Assembly: GCF_003334815.1 (NCBI RefSeq)
Contig: NZ_QOWO01000017.1
DNA length: 64,000 nucleotides
Origin: Escherichia coli
Lineage (GTDB): Bacteria; Pseudomonadota; Gammaproteobacteria; Enterobacterales; Enterobacteriaceae
Direction: 5' to 3' (one strand)
The notes under the pieces were generated by a model that saw only the letters and a program-made list of their open reading frames with translations, had not been told where the DNA came from and did not search any database. Each line of letters begins with the position of its first letter. The stretch's first letter is position 1. Shown here piece by piece: positions 3,029 to 3,244 of this stretch. The translations under genes were made by a program, and so were the position numbers.

Positions 3029-3117
3029 CGAAAGTTAATACCACGTTCGCACAGCTCCTCCAACAGCACGACAAGATGCCACATACTGCGCCCCAGTCGG
3101 TTCAGTTTACAGACTAG
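3029..3117 (-). pseudogene. pinH: Fragment of serine site-specific DNA invertase (Pin/Hin/Gin family)
   Basis: Minus-strand translation [30 protein letters not shown] resembles the conserved core of Pin/Hin invertases; only about 30 codons, no start codon. Confidence 0.5.
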
Positions 3118-3244
3118 CAGTGCGTTCCCTGCCGATGATGTCCTGACCAGTTTTTTCAGTCCGGACCTCCTGCCACGGTTTTACGTTGAAGTGGTAACCC
3201 TGAGCACGCAGTTCTTCAGTCAGGCGTGGTGCACCGTAACGCTG
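3118..3244 (-). mobile_element. IS3-family transposase (OrfB-like) fragment abutting the invertase fragment
   Basis: Minus-strand translation [43 protein letters not shown] resembles the N-terminal region of IS3-family OrfB; different frame from the pin fragment, flanked by stops. Confidence 0.35.

Follow-up and report, generated by a model that had tools for sequence, protein, structure and literature searches.

A composite, probably non-functional scar of IS3 and a Pin-type invertase gene between ypjB and ypjA of Escherichia coli

The window, that is, the whole stretch of 64,000 nucleotides that was analysed, is K-12-like chromosome of Escherichia coli. Its positions 72–9876 are 99.94% identical to MG1655 2,780,194–2,790,000, and the 761 nt around the site described here match several K-12 derivatives at 100% identity. 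On the minus strand the gene order is ileY, ypjC, ypjB, the scar and ypjA, and the two fragments making up the scar, one of an invertase gene and one of IS3, both lie on that strand between ypjB and ypjA. The order 'ypjA; pinH; ypjB; ypjC; ileY' is given in a study on genome reduction (PMC10652928), and the literature on pinH (b2648) yielded gene lists only. The features of the locus are the following.

3246–3263, minus strand: match to the left inverted repeat (IRL) of IS3, nt 1–18, TGATCTTACCCAGCAATA, with 18/18 identity.
3172–3245, minus strand: IS3-like orfB piece, IS3 nt ~544–618, OrfB residues ~58–86 of 288, found by blastn, tblastn and NCBIfam.
3166–3172, minus strand: putative IS3/pin deletion junction, IS3 nt ~618 to pin codon ~41–42, from comparing the window with IS3 and pinE side by side.
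3010–3168, minus strand: internal fragment of a Pin/Hin-family serine DNA invertase, codons 42–94 of 184, the core of the pinH pseudogene.
2941–3180, minus strand: pinH (b2648), curated pseudogene (NC_000913.3 2783065–2783304), reaching from around the junction to the first stop in frame.
3010–3177, minus strand: 'recombinase family protein, missing N-terminus and C-terminus' (incomplete) of PGAP.
2740–2990, minus strand: ypjA upstream block, paralogous (~85–87%) to the ymgJ/ycgV upstream region, from genome matches to query 1–251; 2740 is the query start only, and the block may reach further towards ypjA.

The pinH coordinates were transferred to the window via ypjB, whose record position 2783638 corresponds to window 3514. 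Both the curated NC_000913.3 and PGAP cover the invertase piece only, as a partial pseudogene, and leave the IS3 remnant at 3172–3263 unannotated.

Several neighbours of the scar are themselves altered. ypjB and ypjC of K-12 (3514–4887) are halves of one gene, ypjCB, split by an internal stop; ypjCB is intact (484 aa) in KK19-02 (L008:2299–3753) and a pseudogene in the three other lineages examined. With YpjCB as tblastn query, the phage collection gave no match, and plasmids gave mislabelled E. coli chromosomes and one partial 60% match on a 245-kb E. coli record. Further along, ileY (5638–5713) is a tRNA-Ile(CAU), called tRNA-Met (CAT) by ARAGORN, and the alpha-amylase-family gene ygaQ (6273–8500), intact in strains such as KK19-02 and XDL and several others, is interrupted by an internal stop in K-12 and is a pseudogene there. 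At the other side, window 1–71 is not MG1655 sequence. These nucleotides form one end of an IS5-family element and match copies labelled 'IS5-like element ISKpn26 family transposase' at 100% identity; the element sits in ypjA beside TTAG and truncates the autotransporter ORF (in-frame stop at window 50). The strain is therefore regarded as a K-12 relative with an additional IS in ypjA.

The invertase piece was compared with PinE of an e14-like prophage. In tblastn, window 3168–3010 shares 39 of 53 residues with it (74% aa, E=4e-22), and the pinE DNA matches the fragment with 84% identity over 152 nt (blastn, E=6e-39). Among the matches listed, pinE is the closest intact invertase in DNA at ~86%, and the Fels-2 and SEN8 phage invertases have ~72% protein identity to the fragment. 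Pfam Resolvase (PF00239, E=3e-9) is matched at model positions 48–103 of 145 only. PinE residues 1–41 and 95–184 have no tblastn match in window 2600–3600. Thus homology begins at PinE codon 42, leaving out the catalytic Ser10 region, the intact N-terminus and the start codon; the C-terminal HTH domain is absent as well, the frame entering unrelated sequence and stopping at 2941. The hix/gix/pix-type crossover core AAACCNNGGTTT has 0 exact matches in the window and none within 3 kb of the scar. With one mismatch allowed, five matches occur in the window when 2.2 are expected, which is chance level, and the nearest lies at 6598. Direct or inverted repeats of note flanking the scar were not found in 2600–3600. 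Judged from what is left, the pinH fragment would be unable to work as a recombinase.

On the ypjB side of the invertase piece, IS3 nt 531–618 aligns with window 3258–3172 at 88.6% identity (blastn, E about 1e-22), and tblastn aligns OrfB residues 58–83 of IS3 at 81% identity (E=5e-11). The NCBIfam profile transpos_IS3 (NF033516) agrees, with E=3.5e-4 over profile positions 146–172 of 369. Over its 74 nt the orfB piece differs from IS3 by five mismatches and one gap, and it is nearer to a Shigella IS3 variant, from which three mismatches and one gap separate it (~95%), so that the identity ranges over 92–95%. The gap reflects a deletion of 1 nt from an A-run within the piece, at 3178/3179. OrfA of IS3 has no tblastn match, and neither IS3 nt 19–530 nor nt 619–1258, right inverted repeat included, is present anywhere in the 64-kb window. 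The match stops at IS3 nt 618, ~OrfB residue 86, upstream of the DDE (rve) core, which is therefore absent.

Just beyond the orfB piece, positions 3263–3246 match the IRL of three IS3 copies (L004, L005 and L007) in 18 of 18 nucleotides, window 3263 being the outermost base of the IS. IS3 ends in 5′-TG...CA-3′ with a left repeat starting TGATCTTACCCAGCAATAGTGG; on the left the first 18 nt are present exactly, and the right end is absent from the window. Between the IRL tip and the orfB piece the scar lacks IS3 nt 19–543, which hold the whole of orfA, the frameshift site and the first part of orfB. The remnant is accordingly read, at the level of sequence, as IRL nt 1–18, a putative deletion of nt 19–543, and then orfB nt 544–618. 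An intact IS3 copy (L004) has a 3-bp target-site duplication, CTT; in the scar the right IS end is deleted, so no pair of flanks can be compared. With one terminus left, the remnant would be incapable of transposing or of being mobilised as a two-ended element.

The point at which the two fragments meet can be placed only to within a few bases, since the parents are partly alike there (IS3 GGCAAGCC, pinE GACAGACC). Four lineages share exactly this junction, and KK19-02 retains AGA CCC GGA, the R-P-G of Pin. Since both joined positions are internal, orfB nt ~618 in IS3 and codon ~41–42 in pin, we take the junction to be a deletion scar rather than a boundary of insertion or transposition. The surviving IS terminus faces ypjB, away from pin.

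These results revise a preliminary description of this DNA at several points. It had described two mobile-element fragments, and the similarities to Pin/Hin invertases and to an IS3-family transposase are indeed far above chance, but the boundary lies at 3166–3172 and not, as placed there, ~50 nt away at 3118. The lengths given, about 30 invertase codons and about 42 IS codons, become ~53 (PinE 42–94) and ~25; positions 3119–3168, taken for transposase, are invertase in the same frame as the 'core'. The extra frame change noted there is traced to the 1-nt deletion in the A-run, and the description was right that neither piece has a start codon, both being internal fragments. The check for terminal inverted repeats that it suggested returned the exact 18-nt IRL described above, and nothing IS-like near 3118. 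That the IS itself was mostly deleted holds too, ~93 of its 1258 nt remaining.

The other end of the invertase piece is bounded differently. Thousands of genomes match query 1–251 alone (window 2740–2990), at a site annotated ymgJ, and pin homology ends (codon ~94) within about 20 nt of the block edge at 2990, with no IS sequence adjoining. The block edge thus appears to mark the 3′ truncation point of pin. The autotransporter gene next to ymgJ is presumably ycgV. The ypjA upstream module looks like one duplicated for two adhesin-like autotransporters; a conserved ORF of 39 codons for a 'hypothetical protein' (WP_001120794.1, window 2667–2786) lies inside the ypjA upstream region.

How widely the scar occurs was examined in 5,426 complete E. 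coli genomes. A 286-nt stretch across it is found in one piece in 3,040 of them. Scar carriers (3,003–3,040) and ileY-ygaQ carriers (3,090) are essentially one set, and the remaining genomes lack the whole segment. The IRL tip, the 1-nt deletion, the IS/pin junction and the 3′ end are the same in K-12, KK19-02, 2011C-3911 and XDL (89.5–94% identity), with copies diverged by up to 10%; in these four lineages the IRL tip is kept with one substitution each in two. Because the breakpoints are common and the carrier set is the same, the scar would have formed once, before the lineages split, and would have been inherited with the variable ypjA-ileY-ygaQ segment. On this comparison all events that made the scar are predicted to be older than the divergence of the E. 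coli lineages carrying the segment. Among the matches listed, no site holds a fuller IS or a fuller pin, genomes having the same scar or nothing, and the sole variant is a scar with IS1 inserted. When the exact junction pattern was run against 100,044 species reference genomes, it was found in two contigs only, both E. coli contamination. One is a 539-nt low-coverage contig (Terrisporobacter mayombei DSM 6539) and the other a 2.8-kb contig (Planococcaceae MAG UBA3370), 98.9–100% identical to the locus.

About 43% of the complete E. coli genomes have no ypjA-pinH-ypjCB-ileY-ygaQ block. Across the whole ypjA-ygaQ segment (window 100–7290), pairwise differences between lineages are 0.03–0.10, far exceeding usual E. 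coli core-genome values, which suggests old allelic lineages or recombination in a variable region. As to the fragments themselves, their pairwise diversity is 0.056–0.126, compared with 0.04–0.10 in flanking genes and spacers, as measured in four lineages only.

Signs of present activity were sought in and around the remnant. The sole ATG-started ORF in the pin frame (3084–2941, 47 codons in K-12) is cut by a TGA in KK19-02. An Rfam search of 2500–6000 at E<=1 returned ileY only, as a tRNA match and a sub-threshold match on the opposite strand. A promoter and terminator scan of 2550–3600 gave counts at shuffle level, and the sole hairpin, at 3366–3393, lies just beyond the ypjB stop and outside the remnant.

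Taken together, the locus is very probably a composite, non-functional scar that does nothing today and was formed by decay of IS3 and pin through deletions. The history that we propose would have started with an ancestral Pin-type invertase gene, probably of a prophage or island, located downstream of ypjCB in the same orientation. An IS3-like element would then have inserted upstream of pin or in its 5′ region, oriented like pin and with window 3263 as its left end. Using only 2–3 nt of microhomology, a single illegitimate deletion could have begun at IS3 nt ~619 and reached pin codon ~41, taking with it the DDE core and the right inverted repeat (the 3′ 640 nt of the IS) as well as the promoter, start codon and catalytic serine of pin. 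A separate deletion would have taken IS3 nt 19–543, and a further event would have removed pin beyond codon ~94, joining it to the ypjA module, after which the fragments may have drifted neutrally. Besides point decay, no fewer than three separate rearrangements would be required, which could have come in any order, and the IS may have landed inside or outside pin.

A simpler course had been offered in the preliminary description, in which the insertion of an IS3-family element truncated the invertase gene, most of the IS being deleted later. IS3-family elements often disrupt genes, the IS3 and pin fragments lie next to each other in one orientation, and a genuine IS3 end is present. However, what touches pin is internal orfB at IS3 nt ~618 and no IS terminus, the surviving terminus, the left inverted repeat, being on the far side from pin. 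Outside that repeat, 3264–3600 has no similarity to pin codons 1–41, and the 3′ truncation of pin has no IS sequence beside it. Truncation of the invertase by insertion is thus left unsupported and seems unlikely. A further possibility is that no IS terminus is present at all, with 3263–3246 being diverged internal orfB (IS3 nt 526–543) and the remnant a single internal IS fragment. BLAST does carry the internal alignment through 13 of the 18 bases, as IS3 nt 531–543 (TTACCCGGTCAAA) resembles IRL nt 6–18 (TTACCCAGCAATA). Against the internal IS3 sequence in that register, however, the 18 nt match in only 10 positions, yet the 74 nt that follow have just the few differences counted above, in the Shigella variant as in IS3, and an in-frame TAA would fall at that point. 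An IS3 relative would be needed whose orfB naturally reads ...GATCTTACCCAGCAATAACAGCG / TGATCTTACCCAGCAATAACAGCG. The IRL reading is preferred because of this poor internal fit next to 92–95% identity, and because the full 18-nt match starts exactly at the terminal TG; the internal reading has very little probability left.

IS3 orfB nt ~526–543 (TTTTACCCGGTCAAAAC) is like the element's own left repeat (TCTTACCCAGCAATAG), and could act as a recurrent breakpoint, through recognition as a pseudo-end by transposase or through slipped pairing, to yield internally deleted or 5′-truncated IS3. Two independent remnants do break near one coordinate, the scar with IRL nt 18 joined to nt ~544 and a fragment on pSLG231 starting from nt 530. 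Both breakpoints are in mosaic DNA and coincidence fits just as well, so we regard a recurrent breakpoint as improbable. The pSLG231 fragment, from Shigella dysenteriae (L006:2501–2770), comprises IS3 nt 530–791 at 96.6% identity and lies beside IS66 and IS4 debris. Common ancestry of this fragment with the T-run/left-repeat region of the scar was also considered and rejected, since the upstream sequences are unrelated (IS66 and IS4 debris in pSLG231). Finally, the remnant might have been co-opted, as a small protein from the ATG at 3084, as an sRNA or as part of the regulatory region of ypjA. Identical breakpoints are kept in about 3,000 genomes, the locus precedes the ypjA start by 400–650 bp and shares its strand, and K-12 has the 47-codon ORF. 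Linkage with ileY-ygaQ explains this retention, however, as the near-equal carrier counts indicate; the ORF is broken in KK19-02, diversity equals or exceeds that of neighbouring DNA, no Rfam match was obtained, and promoter-like and terminator-like sites are no more frequent than in shuffled sequence. Co-option is therefore hardly to be expected, and the observations fit a scar that would be ancient neutral debris.

The invertase piece was already known as the pinH pseudogene, and what is new is confined to the 93-nt IS3 remnant, which had no annotation, and the correct placement of the junction. That the 5′ side of pinH is bounded by this remnant, which appears to include a genuine left end, is a minor refinement of annotation. 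The composite scar is probably ancient and is fixed wherever the ypjA-ileY-ygaQ variable segment occurs. It offers a small example of how mobile-element genes may decay via successive illegitimate deletions, and raises no new biology.

Compared with IS3 (1258 bp, IS3 family, IS3 group), the remnant shares the exact 18 nt of the left repeat and ~75 nt of orfB at 89–95% identity, depending on the variant. It differs in what has gone, as the ~93 of 1258 nt that are left include no orfA, frameshift site, DDE core or right inverted repeat. To PinE and the Pin/Hin/Gin/Cin invertases in general, the likeness lies in the middle of the catalytic domain, with 74% protein and 84–86% DNA identity to pinE codons 42–94. 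Unlike these enzymes, pinH lacks codons 1–41 with the nucleophilic serine, the dimerisation helix and the C-terminal HTH (95–184), and its locus has neither an invertible segment nor crossover sites nearby. pinH (b2648) of MG1655 is the same locus as that described here, its curated feature spanning the invertase frame alone. The 'PinH' of O157:H7 (PMC3936929) shares the name but, unlike this locus, is described there as a prophage product, a 22 kDa protein of CP-933H.
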